A stretch of DNA of 64,000 nt, from positions 6,869-70,868 of the forward strand of contig CAIKRV010000084.1 in assembly GCA_903829945.1 (NCBI GenBank), given 5' to 3'. The notes under the pieces were generated by a model. The model ran no database searches, was not told the origin of the DNA, and was given only the letters and a program-made list of their open reading frames with translations. Positions 51,683 through 64,000 of this stretch are shown here, piece after piece. A program made the translations under genes and the position numbers. Source of the DNA: an uncultured bacterium (GTDB lineage Bacteria > Bacteroidota > Bacteroidia > CAILMK01). Numbering within the stretch: position 1 is the first letter of the stretch; every line of letters starts with the position of its first letter.

Positions 51683-52693
51683 TTATTCGTAAAGTAAACT
51701 ACAACCCCTTAAGTCAGAATTATCAAAACGACCAAGTACTTCAAAGGTATCTTCATTATGTAATTTACCCAAATCTTTTACTGCAATAAAACTACATGAA
51801 AATAAATTAGCGAGATCAATAATATTAATACCCCCGGTTTGCCCTTGGGGAACATAAGAAAAAGGATCATTCACTTCCCTGATTAATATACGCATCCAAG
51901 GACTACTGTGGTATATGCCATTCCCTTTGGAATAGGCTTGCGAAAGTAATTCAGTCATTCCATATTCCGAATGAATGGTATTTACCTTAAATTTATCCAT
52001 CAAGATGGCATGAAGTTCCTCACGTATTAATTCAGTTCTTCGACCCTTCATGCCCCCGGTTTCCATGACAATTACATCACTCAAATCTATTTGAAATTGC
52101 TCCGCAAAATCCAACAAAGCAAAGCTGACGCCCATTAAAAATTTCTTCTTAGTGCTTTTTATGACTAAGGCATTTGCCAATGCTTCATGATTATATAAAT
52201 ACCAGTGATTATTTCCATTTCCGCTTTCAGCCATCAAAAAATGCATCATATAAACCAAGGAAGAATTTTCTCTTTCTGCATAAGCCGGTAAAAGTGCATA
52301 AAAAATATAATCTTTTACAGATCCGTAAGCATCTTCAAAAGCTTTTAAAATGGCTTGCTGATAAATTTCTTCCTCTGCTAAATAGTGCTTTGCATGATTG
52401 ATTCCGGTAGTGCCGCTGCTTTGAAAATACCGGCCTACTTCCATATTTTCCGTTATTATCGGTTCATTTTTAAAAAATTCTACCGGTAAAAATGGAATTT
52501 CTTCAACTTTTTTGATTGAAGAAGGGTTTATATCCAAGTATTCAAGATATTTGCGATATAAGTTAACATGCCTAGCCTGAAATTGAAATACTTCCAAAGC
52601 AAGTTCGTTAAAAGCTTCAGGAGCAGAATAAAAAATTCTGTTCTTCAGGCTGTTTATTTCGGAAGTAGTCATAGCTTGAGAAAAATCTTGCAA
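51683..52693 (-). CDS. LuxE-like acyl-protein synthetase / adenylate-forming (ANL-type) enzyme
   Basis: SSGTTG adenylation-core motif. The ~340-aa size and the motif spacing resemble the LuxE/F390-synthetase family. Confidence 0.5.
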   Translation of the reverse strand: MQDFSQAMTTSEINSLKNRIFYSAPEAFNELALEVFQFQARHVNLYRKYLEYLDINPSSIKKVEEIPFLPVEFFKNEPIITENMEVGRYFQSSGTTGINHAKHYLAEEEIYQQAILKAFEDAYGSVKDYIFYALLPAYAERENSSLVYMMHFLMAESGNGNNHWYLYNHEALANALVIKSTKKKFLMGVSFALLDFAEQFQIDLSDVIVMETGGMKGRRTELIREELHAILMDKFKVNTIHSEYGMTELLSQAYSKGNGIYHSSPWMRILIREVNDPFSYVPQGQTGGINIIDLANLFSCSFIAVKDLGKLHNEDTFEVLGRFDNSDLRGCSLLYE

Positions 52694-53194
52694 ATATCTA
52701 TTTTTTTCATCGGATGTACACTACTTATAGCAGGATGTTATAAACGGGAAATTTTTTCAATTGTTCCTGAAATAAGCTTAGGGAGTTACAATATGGTTCA
52801 TGTAGGTGATGGCATTGACTCCTTTTCATTTACGCTTAACTATAAAGATGGTGACGGAGATATAGGGTACAAACCGACCGATACGTATAAACCCTATGAT
52901 ACCGGAAGCTATTTTTATTCTTGTTTATTTATCCAGTACCTGGAATTGCAAAATGGTCACTATGTATATGTAAAGGATCCTTTATACAATATTGACACGA
53001 TCCAATATTCATTTCGATTGCCGGCTTTAAACAATTTAAACAGACCTCAGCCCATCAGCGGCAATATAAATTTCGGAATTTATTTGAATCATAAAACTAT
53101 TTATAAAACATTTAAATTCAGAATATTACTTTTTGATAAGGCCCTCCATGAAAGCAATATTATTGAAACCCCTCCTATGCAGCGCGGCAATTAA
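52688..53194 (+). CDS. Hypothetical lipoprotein
   Basis: Probable TTG start giving LQISIFFIGCTLLIAGCYK (lipobox). The track ORF begins 120 nt earlier and overlaps the LuxE-like gene. Confidence 0.4.
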   Translation: MQISIFFIGCTLLIAGCYKREIFSIVPEISLGSYNMVHVGDGIDSFSFTLNYKDGDGDIGYKPTDTYKPYDTGSYFYSCLFIQYLELQNGHYVYVKDPLYNIDTIQYSFRLPALNNLNRPQPISGNINFGIYLNHKTIYKTFKFRILLFDKALHESNIIETPPMQRGN

Positions 53195-54415
53195 TTATTC
53201 ATAACGCAATGCCTCGATAGGACGCATATGGGCGGCTTTTCGTGCCGGTAAATATCCAAATATAATACCGATAAAGGTTGCCGATCCAAAGGCAAATATG
53301 ACGGAATTAGTAGTAATGATTATGGGCCATCCGGCAAAAAGTCCTACTAAATTTGAAAATAACACACCTAATCCCAATCCGATAAAGCCACCGATTAAGC
53401 TTAAAAATACGGCTTCTATCAGGAATTGTAATAAAATATCTTTCCCTTTTGCGCCAATGGCCATTCTTAGTCCTATTTCACGGGTACGCTCGGTAATGGA
53501 AACCAACATGATATTCATAATTCCAATACCGCCAACGATTAAAGAAATAAAGGCCATAATGGTTAATAATACGCCCAAAACAGTACTGATGGAGCCAAAT
53601 ATATTACTGATTTCTGATTGTGTACGAATAGTAAAATCGGCATCCTCGGGATCCAAAATTTTATGCCTTTGCATCAAAATTTCAGTAATTTCATCCACTG
53701 CTTTATTGGTCACTTTTTCATTGGTAGAAGAAGCAATTATTTGTCCTACATTAGTGGTTCCCAACATTCTTTTCTGAACGGTATAAAATGGGCCGAGAAT
53801 AACATCATCTTGGTCCTGCCCAAAGCTATTTTGCCCTTTTTTCTCTAAAATACCAATCACTCTAAAAGGAATTTTATTAATTCGTATGGTTTGTCCTAAG
53901 GCATTGGCCCCGGCACCAAATAAATTGGTAACGACCGTTTCACCGATGATGCAAACTTTAGCACTGCTTTTATTTTCGGCCATGGTAAAGCAAGTACCCT
54001 TTGGGATTTTAAGATTCCTAACGGTAAAATATTCAGTATTGACGCCGAAAATTGAAGTATGCCAGTTTTGAGAACCATAAACTGTTTGTGCGGAAGTTCG
54101 TACAATTGGAGAAAGTGCAGAAATATCCGGACAAAACTCTCGGATGGCATCAGCATCTTCAACCGTCATATTTTGACCGGTACCGGCATCCGAACGTACG
54201 CCGCCGTTATTTTGAGCGCCCGGCATAATCATAATTGCATTTACACCCAAACTTGAAAAGGATGATTTAATACTTGAACTCGATCCTTCACCGATGCCCA
54301 TCATGGTAACAATCGAGGCCACGCCTATAATAATACCAATCATGGTAAGAATGGTTCTCAATTTGTTCTTCATTAAAGAACGATAGGCTATTTTTATCAG
54401 ATTGGAAAATCGCAT
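53195..54415 (-). CDS. MacB-type ABC transporter permease (N-terminal TM + periplasmic MacB_PCD + FtsX 3-TM C-terminus)
   Basis: 406 aa. It has 1 N-terminal TM, a ~220-aa periplasmic domain and a C-terminal FtsX-like 3-TM bundle. Confidence 0.85.
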   Translation of the reverse strand: MRFSNLIKIAYRSLMKNKLRTILTMIGIIIGVASIVTMMGIGEGSSSSIKSSFSSLGVNAIMIMPGAQNNGGVRSDAGTGQNMTVEDADAIREFCPDISALSPIVRTSAQTVYGSQNWHTSIFGVNTEYFTVRNLKIPKGTCFTMAENKSSAKVCIIGETVVTNLFGAGANALGQTIRINKIPFRVIGILEKKGQNSFGQDQDDVILGPFYTVQKRMLGTTNVGQIIASSTNEKVTNKAVDEITEILMQRHKILDPEDADFTIRTQSEISNIFGSISTVLGVLLTIMAFISLIVGGIGIMNIMLVSITERTREIGLRMAIGAKGKDILLQFLIEAVFLSLIGGFIGLGLGVLFSNLVGLFAGWPIIITTNSVIFAFGSATFIGIIFGYLPARKAAHMRPIEALRYE

Positions 54416-54416
54416 A

Positions 54417-55169
54417 TCAAATAGTAATTTCTTTAGGTGGTAGTTTTTTTAATTCTTCAGTAGCATTTCGAGGATTTGCAACCATTTCATCTTTAAAGAT
54501 ACTACCATCTCTAAAATGGACATTACGTTTAGTAAATTCTGCAATGTCCGGTTCATGAGTTACCAAAGCAATTGTTTTTCCTAAGGCATTCATTTTTTGA
54601 AATATTTCCATTACTTCAAAGGAAGTTCGGGTGTCCAAATTACCGGTAGGTTCATCCGCAAGTATTAAAACCGGATCATTAACAATAGCTCGGGCAATGG
54701 CAACCCGCTGTTGCTGTCCACCTGATAATTGATTCGGCATAGAGGCGGCTCTTTCTAATAATCCAACCGATCTTAAGGCCTCCAAAGCACGTTCACGTCT
54801 TTCCTTAGCATTTATGTTCGGATTATAAAGCATAGGCAATTCTACATTTTCAATGGCGGGTGTCCTAGGCAATAAATTGTATGCTTGAAATACAAATCCG
54901 ATTTTTTGATTTCTTAAATCTGCCAATTGATTGGCGGTATTTTTTTTCACATCGATGCCATCTAAGAAATAGTCCCCGGAAGTAGCTACATCCAAGCATC
55001 CCAAAATATTCATAATAGTACTTTTCCCGGAACCGCTCGGTCCCATGATAGCTACAAATTCATTTTCATAAATTTTAAGACTAGTCCCTCTAAGCGCCTT
55101 GACCACAATATCACCCATGGTATAGGTCTTGGTTAAATCTCTGGTTTCTATGACCGGCTTATCATTCAT
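54417..55169 (-). CDS. ABC transporter ATP-binding protein (MacB/LolD type)
   Basis: Walker [10 protein letters not shown], signature [14 protein letters not shown], Walker [13 protein letters not shown]. The start is taken as the internal ATG (MNDKPVIE). The track start overlaps the upstream MFP gene. Confidence 0.9.
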
Positions 55170-55170
55170 G

Positions 55171-56364
55171 TTATTTTTTCTTTGCGCCGAATTTAGGCAT
55201 GAAAGGACTTCTGGCCGGACCTGCATGGCCTATCACTTCTGATTCTGTTACTACATCATCTCCTTCCTTTATTGGTCCCATTATTTCAGTATAGTTACCA
55301 TCAGAAATACCTAAAGTAACCTCTACTGCTGAAACTTTATTATCCTTGTTTTTAATCCAAATATTTTGTTTTGAACCCGGTAAATAATAATTCGGTGCAG
55401 ATGATTTCTTAGAAGAATCAGGAGCAGGGATATTATTAATTAAATAATATTCAGTAGGAGGAACATATTTTATGGCTTTGCTTTGAATTTTCAAAACATT
55501 CTTATGATTCTTGACATGAATGGTAATATTGGTCGTCATTCCCGGCATTAATTTTAAATCCTTATTCGGAACGTCAATGACCACAGTATAAGTAACTACA
55601 TTTTGAACAGTGGTGGGCTGTAATCGTATTTGGGTAACTTTACCGTCAAATACATCCGTTTGATAGGCATCTACCGTAAAGGTTACTTCTTGGTTTAACT
55701 GTACATCTCCTATATCAGCTTCGTCAACACTGGCTAAAACCTGCATTTTGGTAAGATCATTGGCAATGGTAAATAATGTAGGTGTACTAAAACTAGCAGC
55801 CACTGTTTGTCCCACATCCACAGCCCTGGAAATGACCACCCCGTCAATTGGGGCATAAATGGTAGCATAATTAAGATTAATTTGAGCTCTGTTGAGCTGC
55901 GCAATGGCTGAACGCTCTACTGCTACTGCCGTTTCATAATTAGAAACTGACATATCATAATCGGATTGTGCAATGGCTTTTGCAGCCAGCAATTTTGTAT
56001 TTCTTTCATAATCCCTCGTAGTTTGGGTAACTGCTGCATGCGCTTTGGCTAAATTAGCTTTAGCATCTTCTAAAGCAGCTATTAAAGGAGTTTTATCCAA
56101 TTCAGCTACGATTTGACCTTTTTTAACATGGGAATTAAAATCAACATTTAGTTTATTAATAATACCGGATACCTGCGTACCCACTTGTACTGTGGTTACT
56201 GCACTCAATGTTCCGGTTGCCGTTACATTCAAGTTTACATCGCCGCGCTGTACCTTTGCAGTGGTCCAATTAATGCTTAACTTATTATTGCACGAATAAG
56301 AAATTAAGCTTAGGGCAATTATACTGAGCAGTGAAATGCCGGATAAAAATTTATTTTTAATCAT
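55171..56364 (-). CDS. Efflux transporter periplasmic adaptor (MFP, HlyD/MacA family)
   Basis: Signal-anchor/lipoprotein-like N-terminus (SLLSIIALSLISYSC), a coiled-coil hairpin, and beta-barrel/MP domains. The start is chosen at the internal ATG to avoid overlap with the tolC-like gene. Confidence 0.8.
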   Translation of the reverse strand: MIKNKFLSGISLLSIIALSLISYSCNNKLSINWTTAKVQRGDVNLNVTATGTLSAVTTVQVGTQVSGIINKLNVDFNSHVKKGQIVAELDKTPLIAALEDAKANLAKAHAAVTQTTRDYERNTKLLAAKAIAQSDYDMSVSNYETAVAVERSAIAQLNRAQINLNYATIYAPIDGVVISRAVDVGQTVAASFSTPTLFTIANDLTKMQVLASVDEADIGDVQLNQEVTFTVDAYQTDVFDGKVTQIRLQPTTVQNVVTYTVVIDVPNKDLKLMPGMTTNITIHVKNHKNVLKIQSKAIKYVPPTEYYLINNIPAPDSSKKSSAPNYYLPGSKQNIWIKNKDNKVSAVEVTLGISDGNYTEIMGPIKEGDDVVTESEVIGHAGPARSPFMPKFGAKKK

Positions 56365-56374
56365 TGTATTTTTC

Positions 56375-57811
56375 TTAGAGTGATATTGGTTTTCCAAGAT
56401 AGAAATCAAGTACTTTTTGTTTGAAGATAAAATCATATTTGGCTTGAATCAAGGCAGATTTTGCTTGAATATAATTACTATTCTCTATAAATAAATCATT
56501 TGCAGTGGAGAATCCTTGGTTAAACCTCGCCAAAATATTATTATATGAAATTTGAGAATAATCTACTTGTTCTTGCGTAGCAATATATTTTTTGCCGGCA
56601 GCTTTTAAATCGGTATAGGCTTGTTCTACGCTTTTGCGTAAATCATTCATGGTGCTTTTTTGATTTAACTGCACTTGTTCAATATTTACTTTAGCACGAT
56701 CCACGCCGGCCTTGGTTTGTAAATTTGTAAATATAGGTACGCTCAAGGAAAACAATAAAGCTTGTCCAAAATTATCACCTACTTGACGCGTAAAAGAATA
56801 AGGGCTTGAAATAGGTGTTAAAGTGCTGGTATTAACAGTTACTATTTCAGTAGGATTACTTTTTAAAAAGGCAATATCCCGGGGGGTGATGACAGGCTCG
56901 TAAGAAATTAAATTACGAGCACTAGAATAACTTGAAGTTAAGCTGCCGCCTAAGGTTAATTTTGGGAGATAGGCTCCTTTACTGATATTATAACTCATTG
57001 CAGCGCTTTGAACTTGCAAATCTGCGCCTTTTATTTGAGGCTGATTGCCTAAGGCCACTTTATAAATCTGATCTGTTGTAGAAGAAGTATCGATTAACGG
57101 AATTCCGTTTAATACCGGAATTTCTATTGTAAAATCATCAGAAGCAGGCAATTCCATCAATTGTTCCAAGGTTAGCTTTGCCAGGGCAATTTGATTTTCC
57201 GCTGTTATTTCTTGTGATTTATACCCGGCTAATTGCGACTTTAATTGGTACAAGTTAGCTTCCGCCAATTTGCCCACGTCCACCATTATTTTTGTTTTGT
57301 CAACATTTATTTGTGCAGCAGCCACCTGACTTTGGGCCACTGCTAATTGTTCTTGTGCCAGAAGAATTTGTAAATAGGCACCGGCAACATTTAAAGCAAT
57401 ATCATTTTTGGTTTTTTCTATTTGCTGTTTTCCGGCATCTACATCCAGACCATATTTTTTAATGGTATTGCGGTATTGAAAACCGTTAAATAAAACAACA
57501 TTTGAATTGAGTCCAAAATTATTACTTCTAACCGACTCATTTACATACTGATAAGTAGATGGATCCAAGGAACGACCAAAATTAAATCCTTGTGATGCAC
57601 TTCCATTTAAATTGGGATACAGCGCAGCTTTGGATTGATATTCATTAATGCTATTTAAGGAGTTGTTGGAAATAGTCAATTTTAATTGAATATTTTCTTG
57701 CCAAGCCCTATCAATACATTCTCTTAGATTCCAAACTTTTTTTTGTGCGTATGTGCCTGTACTGAAAAGCAATACAAAGAATAGGCTTATTTTTAAGTTT
57801 CGCATAGGCAA
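56375..57811 (-). CDS. TolC-family outer membrane efflux protein
   Basis: 478 aa with a signal peptide. Duplicated coiled-coil/beta repeats are typical of outer-membrane factors. Confidence 0.8.
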   Translation of the reverse strand: MPMRNLKISLFFVLLFSTGTYAQKKVWNLRECIDRAWQENIQLKLTISNNSLNSINEYQSKAALYPNLNGSASQGFNFGRSLDPSTYQYVNESVRSNNFGLNSNVVLFNGFQYRNTIKKYGLDVDAGKQQIEKTKNDIALNVAGAYLQILLAQEQLAVAQSQVAAAQINVDKTKIMVDVGKLAEANLYQLKSQLAGYKSQEITAENQIALAKLTLEQLMELPASDDFTIEIPVLNGIPLIDTSSTTDQIYKVALGNQPQIKGADLQVQSAAMSYNISKGAYLPKLTLGGSLTSSYSSARNLISYEPVITPRDIAFLKSNPTEIVTVNTSTLTPISSPYSFTRQVGDNFGQALLFSLSVPIFTNLQTKAGVDRAKVNIEQVQLNQKSTMNDLRKSVEQAYTDLKAAGKKYIATQEQVDYSQISYNNILARFNQGFSTANDLFIENSNYIQAKSALIQAKYDFIFKQKVLDFYLGKPISL

Positions 57812-57999
57812 AGTTTACATTTTATTACAGAATAAAAAACTGATTTTCAACAAAGATTGAAATTATTCTTTTTACTGTAAACGATTCAATAGTTTGCTTA
57901 GAAACGATTGAGTCATAATAATGTTACAATTGGCTATGACGTTTGAAGCTTAAAAAAATTGTATCGAATTAAAGATAAATATTTAGTTCCGATAATAAC

Positions 58000-59823
58000 T
58001 TATTTACCGAGTTTTTTTAGGATTCTGATTTTCCTTTCAAAACTCATTCCGCTGATTAATCCATATTCGGAAACTGCTGCAATTTCAAAGGTATATTCCT
58101 TGCCGTACTCCATGGGCGGAGATACCCATTTTCTTGCATCCTTCGTCAGTGTTTTCTCGGTAACAATCAGTTTTTTGTTTTGGTAAACCTGAAATCCTTT
58201 TAAATCAGGAATATTTTCATAACGCCATTCCAAGACTACCCTATTGCTATCTACCTTGATTGGCCATAAATTCGGAAATGGCATCACGCGGGTCGGGGAA
58301 AAGACTTCTATTACTTTACAAGGCTCACTTTCATATTTATACTTACTTTGTGCAGACACCTGAAATTTGTACTTTGCCCCTATGGAATTATATACTTCGT
58401 ATCGATATTGATTATCTTTAATTAAAGGAATAGAAGCCTCCATTAATAATTTTTCGGACGGAGGAAAATTTGCATAAATATGATAGCCCAAAGTCAAAGT
58501 ATCTTCCATTGATTTTCCATCCCAGGCCAAACTGATGTATTGATGTCCTTTTTCTGAAATGAATTTACCTGTTAAATTCTTAGGCACCGGAGGATTAATA
58601 ATAGGATTATAAACAAATAATACTTCATTACTCCAACCTACAAATGAAGGATCATCAGTAATCACCGTTACACGATAAGCATAATAGCCCATTACATCTT
58701 TAGGTCCGATATCGGAAAATGATCTTGTAGCAACAGGCAATACTTCAGAAATTTTCTTAAAGACATAATTTTTATCCGCACGTTCCACAATAAAGCCTTT
58801 TAAAAAAGGTTCTTCTTCCTTTTTAAACTCCCAATTAACCACTACTTCCGGGGGTACACCGGGACTAATCATGGTTTTAAATTCTTTTAAATTAGGTAAA
58901 ACGTATTTGTGGTATGCTTTCACAGGATCAAATATGGCACTTATCCGTTGACCTTCTGAACCGAAAAGATTTATAGGTGCAACGGCATAGGTATAAAGTT
59001 TACCTTCCTCGGCGGTCATATCATAGTAATAAAGTTCTGCCTTTTCTTTTTCAGTACCAATCCAAACCGGACTTTTATTTAGCTTTTCAAAAGCACCGTC
59101 ACCCTTTTGACGATAAACATTAAAGCCATTTAAATTCAATTTATTGTATTCTTTTACATCCACATTCCAAACCACTTCAATTTTAGTTTTTTTATCGGTT
59201 GCCCGCGTAGTAATTTCAATGGGTATAGACAAATTCAATTTTTCACCATAGGTCCAAATAAAGCTCTGTACCGGCTCCTCGGAAGTTTTACCATTAATAA
59301 CTGTAAATAAACCATACTCATATACTTCATCAAAGGGCATATTTTTATCTATTAAAGCAAATCCGGATAATAATGCAATATTATAATCCAAGCCAAATGC
59401 CAATCGCAAATTTTGCAAGGTATTGGGATCATTTTTAACTTGATTATAAAACTCCTTTTTTGAAAATAGCTTTAGACTAAAAAAGGATTTTTTATCCTTT
59501 GTGGTGTAGTTATTCAGTGTTTCTTTTAGTTGGGCAATACTTTCTTTATCGCTCAGTATATTGTCATAATCTTTAGATAAGCTTATTTCAGGATATATTA
59601 ATGATTTACTAAGATCCACCCATTTGGATTGTTTGCCTTCCGTAATAATTCGACGTTTAACGATAAAGCCTTCCAATTTATCCTGCCAAACATCAGCGTA
59701 CCATAATAATTTGACGGTATTTTTATTTCCTTCACCGTATAAATGGTAAGCATTATTTTGTTGTCCGTGAATTGTAAAAACACTGGTTAATGTTATTATA
59801 AAAATGAGATAAATTCTATGCAT
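58000..59823 (-). CDS. Secreted protein with ~5 fibronectin-type-III-like repeats
   Basis: Signal peptide (TSVFTIHGQ). The repeated pattern LxW...(L/K)GFxVYR occurs 5 times (VKLLWYAD...GFIVKRR, IEVVWNVD...GFNVYRQ, VVVNWEF...GFIVERA, ISLAWDG...GYHIYAN, VVLEWRY...GFQVYQN). Confidence 0.55.
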   Translation of the reverse strand: MHRIYLIFIITLTSVFTIHGQQNNAYHLYGEGNKNTVKLLWYADVWQDKLEGFIVKRRIITEGKQSKWVDLSKSLIYPEISLSKDYDNILSDKESIAQLKETLNNYTTKDKKSFFSLKLFSKKEFYNQVKNDPNTLQNLRLAFGLDYNIALLSGFALIDKNMPFDEVYEYGLFTVINGKTSEEPVQSFIWTYGEKLNLSIPIEITTRATDKKTKIEVVWNVDVKEYNKLNLNGFNVYRQKGDGAFEKLNKSPVWIGTEKEKAELYYYDMTAEEGKLYTYAVAPINLFGSEGQRISAIFDPVKAYHKYVLPNLKEFKTMISPGVPPEVVVNWEFKKEEEPFLKGFIVERADKNYVFKKISEVLPVATRSFSDIGPKDVMGYYAYRVTVITDDPSFVGWSNEVLFVYNPIINPPVPKNLTGKFISEKGHQYISLAWDGKSMEDTLTLGYHIYANFPPSEKLLMEASIPLIKDNQYRYEVYNSIGAKYKFQVSAQSKYKYESEPCKVIEVFSPTRVMPFPNLWPIKVDSNRVVLEWRYENIPDLKGFQVYQNKKLIVTEKTLTKDARKWVSPPMEYGKEYTFEIAAVSEYGLISGMSFERKIRILKKLGK

Positions 59824-59853
59824 TGTATAGGGGTGCTATAAAATTATTGGGAC

Positions 59854-62733
59854 TTATAATCCAATATTAAAATCAAATGATTGTGTTGTACCGAAAGGTA
59901 AATGTAATGTAGCATTGCCGTAAAAACTAGATTTACCATTTTTTAAATTAATATAACCCCTGCCTACACCATTTACATTCAGATTAGTTTCAAAAAAGAA
60001 AGTATTTAATTTTATTGTTCCATCAGCAACTACAATTAATTCGATTGGCCTTTTGAACCCATCCTGACTAAAAATTTCCTTAAATGACCCGGTGCTATTT
60101 AAATGCATGGGGCCAATGGTCTCCACACCGGAATTATTTGGTGACTGATAAATAAAACTTACAATACAGGTTCCATCAATTTCACCTAAATAGGTATTTG
60201 GTTTATCGCTATTACCAGACATATAAAAATTTGTGGTATTAATGGCAACTAATGATAATTCTCCTGCAATTCTACACAAACTTACACCCCACGTTTTACC
60301 GCTATTTCCGTAGTTAATTACACAATTATTAATTACTAGCAAACCGCCGTAACTATCCAAGATAAAGGTTGCCCCCGCTTTTGTACCAACTGACGGATTT
60401 CCTAAATTAATGGTGGTCGTAAATTCACCCTTTAGATTTGGCTTTTTTGACGAAAAACCTATGTACCCATTCATGGTCATACTTGGTATGGTTATTAAAT
60501 TATCATCACTTAATTCACCACTCATAGACATAGATTTCAAGTAGTCGCTCATACCTAATTTCAAATAAATGGAATTTGATTTATTGTTGGCATTATTTGC
60601 ACTGATGGTGGTTTTATCCTTATCCACCTTATAGTTTAACCCTAGTACACCTTGAATATTATCAACATTAAAACCGGAGCTTAATGCAATATTCGATTTA
60701 TTGGCAATATTTAATAAGGCATAATTAAATGCATTGGCAGTTGCTGCTCCAATTTCAATATTCCCATCAATTGGCAATTGCCCCAAATTACCTGTGAAGG
60801 TACCGGAGAAATTCTGATTAGCATCTAAAATCGCCTTATAGTCTACATTTACAAAAGGAGTAAGTAAATTTCCTGATATTGCAATAGCACTTATATTACC
60901 GGCATCATTAATGCTCATATTATTAATAGGAATAACAATATCCGTATTTATAAATAATTCCAATTTTGCATTAATGAGCAAATTACCTGCAGTATATTGG
61001 GTATTTATTAAATTAAAATTATATCCGTTATAAAGCACTTTCCCGGCACCTGAAAATTGTGTTAATGCCCCATTCCTAATTTCAAAGGCATTGATGTAAA
61101 TTCCTTGGTCAAATAAAGGATGCTTTGCCATTAAGGAACCTCTAATTATTGAAATATCAAAATTTTGATTAAAATCCGTCATCAGATTTTGATTTGAGAA
61201 AGTCATCCCCAGTGCAAATAAATTATTGGAATGAATATTTGCGTTGCAATTCCCGGCGCCGAATTCCAAATCCAATGCAATACTTCCTTGTGTATGTCCT
61301 ATTTGATCAATAGTAGCGGTACCGCTACCGTCAGAAAAAACCAAGCCGTTTAAAATACTCAATTCCATTCCTAAATTGAGCGTATTCAAGGTAACATTAA
61401 AACCATTAACATTATAAAATGCGCCTCCTATCCCTGTAAAATTTCCTTTATAGGAACCACTGGCATTTAAGCTTGCATTATAAATACTGGCAAGAATTGT
61501 TTGAGGACTGCCCTTTACCAAATCCAAATGAATATTTTTTACGCCGGAAAAGTTAAAGTTTCCATTCCACCCATTAACGTTGTTATAGGCAAAACCAATG
61601 GGCCCGCTGATGCCTTGTTTGAGTAGCACCAGTCCGCCTGATAATGCTTTATCTTGATTCATGATTACATTCATGGCAATTGCCCCGCCTAAGGCTCCGG
61701 AAGGACTTACTTTTAAATTAACATTGTTAATATGTGCATCCAAAAATCCGATTTCGCCTATATCAGCATCACCATTCCAAAGAATAACTACATCCTTAAA
61801 TTTTCCATTTTGACAATTTTTCTTAAAACTTACAGAAGCTCCATTGATGGGAACTTGTTTTTGAGCAATACCGCCATCCATCACTAAATCAAAGGAAGCA
61901 TTACCGGAAGTGTAGAGACAATATCCTTGTCCATCCGGTTCAGCAGCGGTAGCGGCAGTATTAAATTTTACTTGCAACGGACCAAAATTCATATTTGTAA
62001 TCGCCGGGTCGCAATGACAAGAAACCCTGCAATATTTTACCATGGCCACAGCAGAATAAGATACCCCTTGAATGACAAAAACCACCTTAATCGGCGTTAA
62101 ACTTGTGGTATCATTTAGTTTTATAGTTACTGTTTTTGAATTGGTATTGGATAAACTAACGGCAGTTCCGCTAAGTACAGACCATGAGAATGAGCCTCCG
62201 TCATTTTCAGGATAAGGCAAAGCATCTACTTCTCCTGTTTTGGATTGTCCGATACAAATGGTATCAGGAATACTGACTTTAATACTATAAACATTAAAAT
62301 CAAAAGGCACATCACCGCTTTGATCGCTTACCTTGCCTTCTTGTACCCATCTATTTTCTTCAGCATCCCAAATACCGCCGGATTTAAAATGTACTTGAAA
62401 ATGACCATTCAGTTTTGCCGGTGCACTCAATCCTGGTGCAGGACTATTACTGACATCCGGATAGACCTTACCTACCCATGTTTTGGTTTCATTTGGTCCG
62501 ATGGTAAAATCATTGGGGGTGACAGAATATAAAATTGGTCCTTGGGTAGTAATGGTAACAGTGCCATTCTCATTCTTATCGGTGGTTTTAGATTGAGAAC
62601 CCGTATAGCTGGAATATTCTCCTGTTTGTTTACTTACATATAGCTTTTGGGCATGCAGCACGGATACGCTACTAAGCAAACTGAGGACAATTCCGGAAAT
62701 ACAAATTTTATATTGTTGTAAAATTCTTTTCAT
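59854..62733 (-). CDS. Large (959 aa) secreted Asn/Gly/Ser/Thr-rich beta-protein of unknown function
   Basis: Signal peptide (SVSVLHAQ). ~700 aa of low-complexity sequence with alternating hydrophobic residues and repetitive, strand-like character. No recognizable catalytic motif. Confidence 0.5.
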   Translation of the reverse strand: MKRILQQYKICISGIVLSLLSSVSVLHAQKLYVSKQTGEYSSYTGSQSKTTDKNENGTVTITTQGPILYSVTPNDFTIGPNETKTWVGKVYPDVSNSPAPGLSAPAKLNGHFQVHFKSGGIWDAEENRWVQEGKVSDQSGDVPFDFNVYSIKVSIPDTICIGQSKTGEVDALPYPENDGGSFSWSVLSGTAVSLSNTNSKTVTIKLNDTTSLTPIKVVFVIQGVSYSAVAMVKYCRVSCHCDPAITNMNFGPLQVKFNTAATAAEPDGQGYCLYTSGNASFDLVMDGGIAQKQVPINGASVSFKKNCQNGKFKDVVILWNGDADIGEIGFLDAHINNVNLKVSPSGALGGAIAMNVIMNQDKALSGGLVLLKQGISGPIGFAYNNVNGWNGNFNFSGVKNIHLDLVKGSPQTILASIYNASLNASGSYKGNFTGIGGAFYNVNGFNVTLNTLNLGMELSILNGLVFSDGSGTATIDQIGHTQGSIALDLEFGAGNCNANIHSNNLFALGMTFSNQNLMTDFNQNFDISIIRGSLMAKHPLFDQGIYINAFEIRNGALTQFSGAGKVLYNGYNFNLINTQYTAGNLLINAKLELFINTDIVIPINNMSINDAGNISAIAISGNLLTPFVNVDYKAILDANQNFSGTFTGNLGQLPIDGNIEIGAATANAFNYALLNIANKSNIALSSGFNVDNIQGVLGLNYKVDKDKTTISANNANNKSNSIYLKLGMSDYLKSMSMSGELSDDNLITIPSMTMNGYIGFSSKKPNLKGEFTTTINLGNPSVGTKAGATFILDSYGGLLVINNCVINYGNSGKTWGVSLCRIAGELSLVAINTTNFYMSGNSDKPNTYLGEIDGTCIVSFIYQSPNNSGVETIGPMHLNSTGSFKEIFSQDGFKRPIELIVVADGTIKLNTFFFETNLNVNGVGRGYINLKNGKSSFYGNATLHLPFGTTQSFDFNIGL

Positions 62734-62738
62734 GCGTT

Positions 62739-64000
62739 TTAGAAAATAAAATTCAGATTTGCCGTTCCATAATAATCATTATACTTATTGGCCGGATTGG
62801 CATCTCTATAGTTTGAATTTCCTGTTTCTATATAAAAATTAATGTGTGTGTTTATTTCTTGTCTGTATTGTAAAACTAATGAATTTCTTGAATTGGAAGT
62901 AGTATATAAAGTGGCTTCATTTTTATTGGAATTATAACCTGCGGTGACGGTAATTTTTGGTTTTTTAAAATTATATGCGATCGCTCCTCCAAAGGTATTA
63001 AGTTTTTGCAAGGAACCACCTGCTTTGGTGATGGTATTATAATTTGAATATTGCCCGGTGATCGACAATGGGATATTCAGATTTTGTTGCACCGTAGCAA
63101 ATATAACACTTGAGTTGCTGTTATTATCAGGTAGGGCCGTATTATTTCTTACAGTTCCGCTATACATCATATTAAAATTAGTTGCTGCTTTACCTTCTTG
63201 CAATCTATAATTTAAACCGGCATTATAGGTAAGTAGCTTATCATTAATTTTAAAATCCTGTTCAATATAACTTGTTGTTATTCTGTCATTTTCCCTAAAT
63301 CCTGCAAAAGCTTGCGGCCATCTTGGATGGGGACTAAAACTTAAATTTGCGATATAATAATTATTAATAACCTTATTGGTAAGCTGATTGTACAAGTTAT
63401 TATCATTAGTAACGTACTTTAACTGAAGGCCTATTCTGCGTTTCCAAAAATTCATATTATCGCCAATGCTTACTTCTTCAATATCATTTCTCATAAAAGG
63501 ATTACCAAAGGATTCATATGCCGGACCAACCCTATGATAATCAAATGCAAATTTATTAAAACCCCATTTCAAATTAGCTTTTACAAACCAAGTTGCAGAG
63601 GCTAATTTTTGAATTAATAAAGGAGAAGTGGAAGGATTAATAATAATTAAGTTTTTAAAGAAGGAAGGATCAATAGGAAGACTTTGCTTTAGGGTAGTAT
63701 CTAATTCCAATCGGGTAAATGGGGCTCTGGTATAATCGTTGGTCGTCATGCTCATGGCAAATCCGGCAGATTCTCTGAATACACCATTTTGAGAAAGGAT
63801 GGATTGATCAAACGATACCGCCAGGTTTTGCTTGGGAGCCGTACCCAACTTTATTGAATTGGTATCATCTTGGGCTCGCAATAAAGTCAATCCAAAAATA
63901 GAACCTTCCTGCTCCTTTCCGGCATTAATACGTACTGCAGTCATAGTCCTTCGATAAACCCCCGGATTAACATAAAAGGAATCACGTAAAGCATCATGGC
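62739..64000 (-). CDS. Outer-membrane beta-barrel protein (partial; ORF continues beyond window end)
   Basis: C-terminal ...GTANLNFIF ending with an aromatic residue. The body is Asn/Tyr/Gly-rich with alternating strands. There is no stop codon upstream of the first in-window Met, so the N-terminus is missing. Confidence 0.5.
   Translation of the reverse strand, partial: HDALRDSFYVNPGVYRRTMTAVRINAGKEQEGSIFGLTLLRAQDDTNSIKLGTAPKQNLAVSFDQSILSQNGVFRESAGFAMSMTTNDYTRAPFTRLELDTTLKQSLPIDPSFFKNLIIINPSTSPLLIQKLASATWFVKANLKWGFNKFAFDYHRVGPAYESFGNPFMRNDIEEVSIGDNMNFWKRRIGLQLKYVTNDNNLYNQLTNKVINNYYIANLSFSPHPRWPQAFAGFRENDRITTSYIEQDFKINDKLLTYNAGLNYRLQEGKAATNFNMMYSGTVRNNTALPDNNSNSSVIFATVQQNLNIPLSITGQYSNYNTITKAGGSLQKLNTFGGAIAYNFKKPKITVTAGYNSNKNEATLYTTSNSRNSLVLQYRQEINTHINFYIETGNSNYRDANPANKYNDYYGTANLNFIF

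Follow-up and report, generated by a model that had tools for sequence, protein, structure and literature searches.

What brings an outer-membrane barrel, two further secreted proteins, and a complete efflux pump together on one strand? The question is raised by positions 53195-64000 of a 64,000-nucleotide stretch of DNA from an uncultured member of Bacteroidota (hereafter, the window), where seven co-directional genes lie on the minus strand. A preliminary description had read them as a surface-protein export or assembly module, with its own tripartite pump serving a beta-barrel protein, a large Asn/Gly-rich protein, and a fibronectin type III (FN3) protein. The open reading frame (ORF) listing agrees with that description in the number, sizes, and coordinates of the genes, and also in their spacing, with gaps of 5 nt and 30 nt among the first three genes, 188 nt before the TolC-like gene (194 nt from its ATG), and ~1-10 nt within the exporter when called starts are used. 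Comparison with related loci nevertheless indicates that the region consists of two unrelated units, namely, an efflux pump and a four-gene module (A-B-C-D), and that the module is a distant, toxin-less, split relative of the TANFOR polymorphic-toxin loci.

The cluster does not begin at the barrel gene (B), as had been supposed. On the extended source contig (L001), which was reached by an exact-sequence match of the window, a fourth co-directional gene, A (484 aa), lies 54 nt upstream of B and beyond the window end (L001 6381-7835). Synteny was compared among homologues of C, the 959-aa protein, which were obtained by a word-indexed search (nine 90%-identity clusters) and supplemented with contigs and with genome and metagenome scans. 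This analysis uncovered orthologs of all four genes in L001, L002 (/L003/L008), L004, L005, L006/L007, L009, L010, L011, and L013, i.e., in at least 9 independent Bacteroidota loci, with L016 and L017 being partial; the hosts are Bacteroidota metagenome-assembled genomes. The genes follow one of two orders (A-B-C-D or A-C-D-B) with internal gaps of 1-54 nt, and when all ORFs within ±10 kb were compared against one another, nothing beyond A-D proved to be conserved across the module loci.

The pump adjoins the module only in L001 and L002/L003, the two closest lineages, whose flanks are also syntenic (QRPTase, thioredoxin, and RsmF). It was not found within ±10 kb in L004, L005, L006/L007, L009, L011, and L013 or in the available sequence of the shorter contigs L010 and L016, and it is absent from all of the TANFOR-type loci described below. 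The gene order of the window recurs in L004, with a C that is 42% identical, and unrelated metabolic genes come after the module there. Outside the closest lineages, then, relatives keep A-D and not the seven-gene order. Since the whole neighborhood is syntenic wherever the pump is present, we attribute its adjacency to common descent, and because it is missing near the module in the other loci, a coupling between the two units is unsupported.

A pump that works as a dedicated exporter or assembly motor for B, C, and D, drawing them from the periplasm and sending them out via TolC, would account for the co-directional adjacency in the window and in L002/L003, and MacB-type systems can act on periplasmic substrates. 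We nonetheless consider such a motor very improbable, given the loci in which the linkage is absent, the shared descent of the neighborhood, and the large gap between D and the TolC-like gene (188-492 nt, the upper value being that of L002); moreover, we know of no folded, beta-rich proteins of 600-960 aa among MacB/TolC substrates. The gap in the window (57812-57999, minus strand) is likely a boundary between two transcription units; a sigma-70 promoter and terminator scan of this region gave matches at chance level, with a consensus that is unsuited to Bacteroidota promoters. Thus, of the surface export or assembly module proposed earlier, a conserved unit of Sec-exported proteins (B, C, and D) is retained, most plausibly acting in surface display or export, and the dedicated pump is not. 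That the module is a unit of TANFOR lineage, independent of the pump, is well supported.

The pump itself (53195-57811) is, on its domain content, a generic tripartite ABC efflux pump of the MacAB-TolC type, and the earlier reading of a complete exporter was correct. Its ATPase, membrane fusion protein (MFP), TolC-family channel, and permease sit together in one operon. The permease gene (53195-54415) encodes the MacB periplasmic core domain (MacB_PCD, PF12704, E = 6e-48) followed by the FtsX transmembrane domain (PF02687, E = 1.5e-20), and its best NCBIfam model is MacB (E = 2.4e-85). The ATPase (54417-55226, or 54417-55169 with the called start) is of the MacB/LolD type, with a match to ABC_tran (E = 1.3e-31) and with the N-terminal half of MacB (E = 5.4e-73) and LolD as its best NCBIfam matches. 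The MFP, a periplasmic adaptor (55171-56436, called 55171-56364), matches HlyD_D23 (E = 3.9e-26), TIGR01730 (198 bits, above the cut-off), and the MacA model (E = 1.4e-41), and the TolC-family outer-membrane efflux protein (56375-57811, with an ATG at 57805) matches Pfam OEP (E = 2.6e-49) and TIGR01844 (E = 3e-41). All four genes are on the minus strand, and every MacA, MacB, and TolC score in NCBIfam is under the equivalog cut-off. The composition of OEP, MFP, ABC ATPase, and MacB_PCD + FtsX permease is that of MacAB-TolC and DevCA-HgdD; in contrast to the fused MacB of E. coli, the ATPase and permease are separate polypeptides, as in LolCDE and DevCA. The linkage of this pump to the neighboring module does not extend beyond the closest relatives.

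We then considered what the module encodes. Each of A, B, C, and D begins with a Sec signal sequence that can be read directly from the protein. Signal peptides had been assigned to the three upstream proteins of the window, and Sec export holds for all of them, although the N-terminus of the barrel lies outside the window and is seen only on L001. Pfam and NCBIfam gave no family match for B, C, and D other than a sub-threshold fn3 on D, and sequence-profile searches of the PDB with A, B, and C returned nothing below E = 0.3. A is built of immunoglobulin (Ig)-like modules. A few residues from their C-terminus, all A proteins share a conserved (V/L)FGLP(K/Q) motif, and this FGLP[KQ] motif is unlike the C-terminal domain of type IX secretion system (T9SS) substrates or other sorting signals familiar to us. 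B is a large outer-membrane beta-barrel protein of 701 aa carrying an Ig-like N-terminal domain that would be periplasmic or surface-located; the window holds its C-terminal 419 residues (62739-64000, minus strand, open at the window end), and the gene starts at approximately position 64844 on the extended contig. D (607 aa; 58000-59823, minus strand) is orthologous in all module loci. The FN3 repeats reported for it are borne out by a Pfam fn3 score just below the cut-off (24.3 versus 25 bits, E = 3.6e-5) and by a match of the D profile to titin FN3 arrays in the PDB (profile positions 304-590, E = 1.8e-7), which together identify D as a tandem FN3-repeat protein.

The central component is C (59854-62733, minus strand), which is indeed rich in Asn (11.1%) and Gly (10.7%). 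Its N-terminal part (61999-62733) comprises a cleavable signal peptide (aa 1-28) and, after it, a domain that is conserved among relatives (the N-terminal domain, NTD; aa ~29-245), has invariant cysteines, and includes a PKD/Ig-like domain; the rest of the gene (59854-61998; aa ~246-959 plus the stop codon) encodes an all-beta C-terminal domain of ~700 aa (hereafter, CTD) that is rich in Asn, Gly, Ser, and Thr. There is no further hydrophobic segment beyond the signal peptide. An AlphaFold2 model of C is all-beta, with a mean confidence (pLDDT) of 74 overall and 80-90 over residues 140-590. An hhalign comparison between segments of the CTD detected no internal repeats (all probabilities <4%), which rules out an RHS/YD-like or Ig-array repeat architecture for this domain.

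A large barrel encoded beside a long, beta-rich, amphipathic protein also calls to mind TamA/TamB, AsmA, or LptD, i.e., an envelope-spanning device for lipid or outer-membrane protein assembly, and a TamA/TamB- or AsmA-like relationship had been entertained for B and C. Foldseek returned weak matches to the beta-belt of ApoB100 (probability 0.82-0.90, TM score 0.14-0.15), which could be taken in that sense. However, Pfam and NCBIfam contain no match to AsmA, TamB, DUF490, Omp85, POTRA, or LptD even at E ≤ 10, the structure search yielded no TamB or AsmA fold, and C has a cleavable signal peptide in place of an inner-membrane anchor. In addition, relatives of C carry secreted toxin modules (see below). 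We find an assembly device of this kind hardly credible. More generally, membership in the TamB, AsmA, LptD, two-partner secretion (TPS), T9SS C-terminal domain, and TonB-dependent transporter families was rejected, as hidden Markov models gave no matches at relaxed thresholds.

The relatives of C point instead to TANFOR proteins, which were described as a class of polymorphic toxins that occurs across Bacteroidota and bears Sec signals (Jana, Salomon & Bosis 2020, PMC7073777). When a profile of C was searched exhaustively with HMMER, 302 representatives were obtained at 50% clustering, among which the NTD and the CTD occur independently: the NTD alone is found in proteins of 450-680 aa, and the CTD forms the C-terminal end of proteins of 1,300-3,300 aa, including TANFOR proteins of 1,700 aa. 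Among the top 150 of these 302 representatives, 29 combine a TANFOR-like N-terminus with the CTD, and the TANFOR model TIGR02542 matches 14 of 22 such proteins (best E = 1.1e-11); it has no match on C even at E ≤ 10. Profile comparisons extend the link to the other components. In an hhalign comparison with 17 TANFOR-CTD proteins, residues 109-363 of A align with the TANFOR N-terminal region (probability 98.8%, E = 4.3e-17), and B aligns with B', the barrels of 574-584 aa encoded directly upstream of TANFOR genes (99.3%, E = 4e-20), which do not have the N-terminal domain of B.

The order of genes tells the same story. Five TANFOR-type loci (L024, L026, L027, L029, and L030) share the order B', TANFOR(-fn3-)CTD (either fused or as two genes), D homologue, X, and D', where X is a protein of ~1,070-1,555 aa and D' is an FN3 protein of ~700 aa. 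The X proteins are unrelated to A-D; the X and D' genes might be candidates for SprC/SprD-type accessory proteins. In each of the 16 loci with sequence available beyond the CTD gene, a D homologue comes after that gene; these loci include TANFOR-type and toxin-bearing ones, in which D lies behind the inserted immunity-like ORFs. Given these links of A, B, the CTD, and D to TANFOR loci, we read the operon in the window as a TANFOR-type protein split into A and C and accompanied by its barrel and FN3 partner. The likeness thus extends from restriction to Bacteroidota, Sec signal peptides, and nearby FN3 proteins to homology of A with the TANFOR N-terminal region, a shared C-terminal body (the 700-aa domain of C is that of many TANFOR proteins), and flanking homologues of B and D. 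The window differs in that the protein is split, C has an extra N-terminal domain, B has an extra Ig-like domain, and no toxin, immunity, or SprB-type gene and neither X nor D' is present. The statement that the cluster is not a described system therefore holds insofar as it is not TPS, TamA/TamB, or a T9SS substrate, and it requires amendment in view of the distant relationship between the module and TANFOR loci.

Published TANFOR loci are compatible with this picture. Proteins of 574, 581, and 593 aa without recognized domains are encoded immediately upstream of Chitinophaga TANFOR toxins, with signal peptides predicted for those of 574 and 593 aa (PMC7073777, Supplemental Data 1). By size and position, they would fit B'. 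The 581-aa protein, a candidate B' homologue (WP_044218632.1), is encoded upstream of the deaminase toxin WP_012790431.1 of Chitinophaga pinensis DSM 2588. Neither that survey (PMC7073777) nor, as judged by titles and occurrence counts, other literature that mentions TANFOR describes the B/B' barrel, the 700-aa domain, or the D partner.

Some members of the CTD family carry toxins, followed by immunity-like ORFs. P0054 has a PT-HINT domain (E = 4.9e-17) and a further C-terminal region after the CTD, and P0068 has an EndoU nuclease after the CTD (E = 5.2e-7), with a 104-aa ORF downstream. P0066 (from L030) is 36% identical to P0068 over ~1,190 residues and has a different C-terminus; its gene is followed by an overlapping 181-aa ORF and then, ahead of D, by an array of small ORFs, some of which are duplicated. 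Small ORFs between the CTD gene and D are present in both L024 and L030. A conserved body, a variable C-terminus, and downstream cassettes in the relatives together constitute a polymorphic-toxin signature. C in the window bears no C-terminal toxin: the 700-aa domain extends to its end, and the 30 nt that separate its gene from D contain no small (immunity-like) ORF. For the C-terminal extensions of P0034 and P0066 and for the tail of P0054, only faint TNT/Hint matches (E = 0.03-0.13) were obtained, and no toxin assignment is claimed. The array in L030 (10516-14677) contains two near-duplicate ORFs of 172 aa and 134 aa, with 89% identity over 126 aa, and a 345-aa ORF that is similar in its C-terminal half to the 181-aa ORF overlapping the stop of the toxin gene; this layout is typical of orphan toxin/immunity cassette arrays.

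These cassettes also bear on whether the module could serve nutrient capture, with B as a barrel resembling TonB-dependent transporters and A, C, and D as surface binding proteins. The model of B is too poor to tell barrel families apart. Yet B has no plug domain and no Plug or TonB_dep_Rec family match, no SusD-like partner accompanies it, and toxin/immunity cassettes in the relatives argue for export and not import. Uptake is accordingly a highly unlikely function for the module.

How might the split protein be held together? Certain loci provide variants that are informative in this regard. In L020 (8543-14540), L022, and L023, A is followed by a protein of 508-511 aa that contains only the NTD, with a Cys/Gly-rich C-terminal half, and then by B; the 700-aa domain and D are both missing. 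In L020, A has 487 aa, B has 685 aa, and an unrelated 307-aa signal-peptide protein is inserted between the NTD-only protein and B. Stand-alone proteins (560-626 aa) that share only the NTD of C were also found in L005 (6623-8479, directly upstream of A) and in L014, L015, and L018, the latter three with no A or B within ±10 kb. Across the loci, A, B, and an NTD-bearing protein travel together, and D travels with the CTD. Loci with a fused A and CTD have neither the NTD nor the extra N-terminal domain of B, which suggests that docking by the NTD and by parts of A and B takes the place of a covalent link. Given the variants that have neither the 700-aa domain nor D, the NTD seems to be a transferable module that targets or docks different cargos.

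From gene content, orthology, synteny, TANFOR homology, and the toxin-bearing relatives, we infer the following localization and function. A, B, C, and D would cross the inner membrane via Sec, and B would insert into the outer membrane as a dedicated export pore and/or anchor. A and the NTD of C would dock at B, a contact that would be covalent in the fused TANFOR proteins, whose barrel then has no extra N-terminal domain. C would be the cargo, composed of the docking domain and the 700-aa domain that serves as the toxin-attachment platform in relatives, and the 700-aa domain and D would form a scaffold for contact or adhesion, exposed at the cell surface. Since it carries no toxin, the copy in the window may be an adhesin-like, "unarmed" version of a system to which some relatives add toxins. 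We assign a probability of roughly 0.6 to this overall account, i.e., Sec export, B-dependent export or anchoring, and a surface scaffold. The more specific prediction that B is an export pore is tentative, and we would expect it to fail somewhat more often than not.

The arrangement recalls TPS and contact-dependent inhibition (CDI) systems (TpsB-TpsA and CdiB-CdiA-CdiI), where a dedicated outer-membrane barrel is likewise encoded next to a large, Sec-exported, beta-rich exoprotein, a conserved N-terminal domain follows the signal peptide of the exoprotein, and some versions end in a variable toxin with an immunity gene after it. However, neither B nor C has any sequence or family relationship with these systems: B lacks an Omp85/POTRA signature, and neither a TPS (Haemagg_act) domain nor FHA repeats occur in C. 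A and D have no counterpart in TPS, and the export role of B is deduced. As a doubtful but attractive extension, the B/B' barrels could represent a previously unrecognized outer-membrane export or display pathway of Bacteroidota for TANFOR-type proteins and their split relatives. Its cargo might then be the 700-aa beta domain, the FN3 partner D, and C-terminal toxins when present, the window possibly containing the minimal four-gene, toxin-less form. Such a pathway would be functionally analogous to TPS/CDI and evolutionarily unrelated to it, a parallel that we offer as speculation.

Several observations weigh against our account. The long relatives score under the 67-bit cut-off of NCBI for TIGR02542, and this model has no match on A even at E ≤ 10. 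Most relatives are toxin-free, like the window copy, and toxin delivery may therefore be a secondary use of the scaffold. The AlphaFold2 model of B, for which the alignment held four close sequences, is of low confidence (pLDDT 39.7), and hence B can be called an outer-membrane barrel but not an export pore. In addition, the CTD fold has no convincing match in the PDB by structure search. Further, a SprB-repeat T9SS substrate with a Por_Secre_tail ends three of the TANFOR-type loci (L026, 23919-25133; L027, 16740-18199; L029, 22921-23821), and a PorP/SprF-family barrel fused to an OmpA-like domain is encoded directly upstream of B' in L027 (3-1268). The authors of the TANFOR survey left the export route open and hypothesized T9SS (PMC7073777).

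The last of these points favor the main rival, in which the module is a T9SS or gliding accessory: T9SS would export A, C, and D, or a T9SS adhesin would carry them along, and B would be a PorP/SprF-like anchor only. Consistent with this view, Por_Secre_tail genes lie upstream of the module in L001 and L002, the module of L005 lies beside gldL, gldM, and gldN, and Fn3, SprB, and T9SS C-terminal domain genes are enriched near TANFOR genes (PMC7073777). On the other hand, Pfam and NCBIfam identify no T9SS C-terminal domain on A, C, and D (one A homologue reaches only E = 0.14 against TIGR04131), and neither B nor B' matches the PorP/PorV families. Window-type loci have no conserved SprB or PorP gene within ±10 kb, and in toxin-bearing relatives the toxin occupies the C-terminus and leaves no room for a canonical T9SS signal. 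We therefore regard T9SS-dependent export with B as an anchor as unlikely, and we favor export or anchoring that depends on B.

Should the barrel prove to be the exporter, it would constitute a new secretion route and a tractable handle on interbacterial antagonism in Bacteroidota. Irrespective of this, three components recur with TANFOR, namely, an upstream outer-membrane barrel, an all-beta domain of ~700 aa before the toxin, and a downstream FN3 partner, which are unannotated and undiscussed in the literature searched; being conserved, they make the question of TANFOR export directly testable. The minimal split form displays A, the NTD, the CTD, and D as separable parts, which is useful for interaction experiments. 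Our data also correct the attractive but wrong inference that the pump is coupled to the module: the pump is ordinary, and the module is a new split, toxin-less form of the known, mechanistically obscure TANFOR kind.

Some minor features of the loci are recorded here. Just upstream of A, one small Por_Secre_tail (T9SS substrate) gene is present in L001 (5236-5643) and three are present in L002 (1499-5401), and a thioredoxin-like gene likewise lies just upstream of A in these two closest lineages; neither kind of gene is conserved at the other module loci. In L005 (19710-23003), the A-C-D-B module is ~3 kb from gldN, gldM, and gldL (the T9SS/gliding core), which are on the opposite strand, and a CotH/Por_Secre_tail protein is encoded there as well; this proximity to gld genes is not conserved in other loci. 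In the window, a plus-strand ORF of 208 aa (52568-53194; 133 aa as called on the source contig) meets the end of the permease gene in convergent orientation and has no family match in Pfam and NCBIfam, and tRNA and Rfam scans of the whole window gave no matches. Finally, an antisense ORF (62245-62532, plus strand) lies inside the C gene and has equivalents in the C genes of 8 loci. These antisense ORFs group by similarity across loci, and they are most likely shadow ORFs of a conserved, compositionally biased coding strand and not genes.

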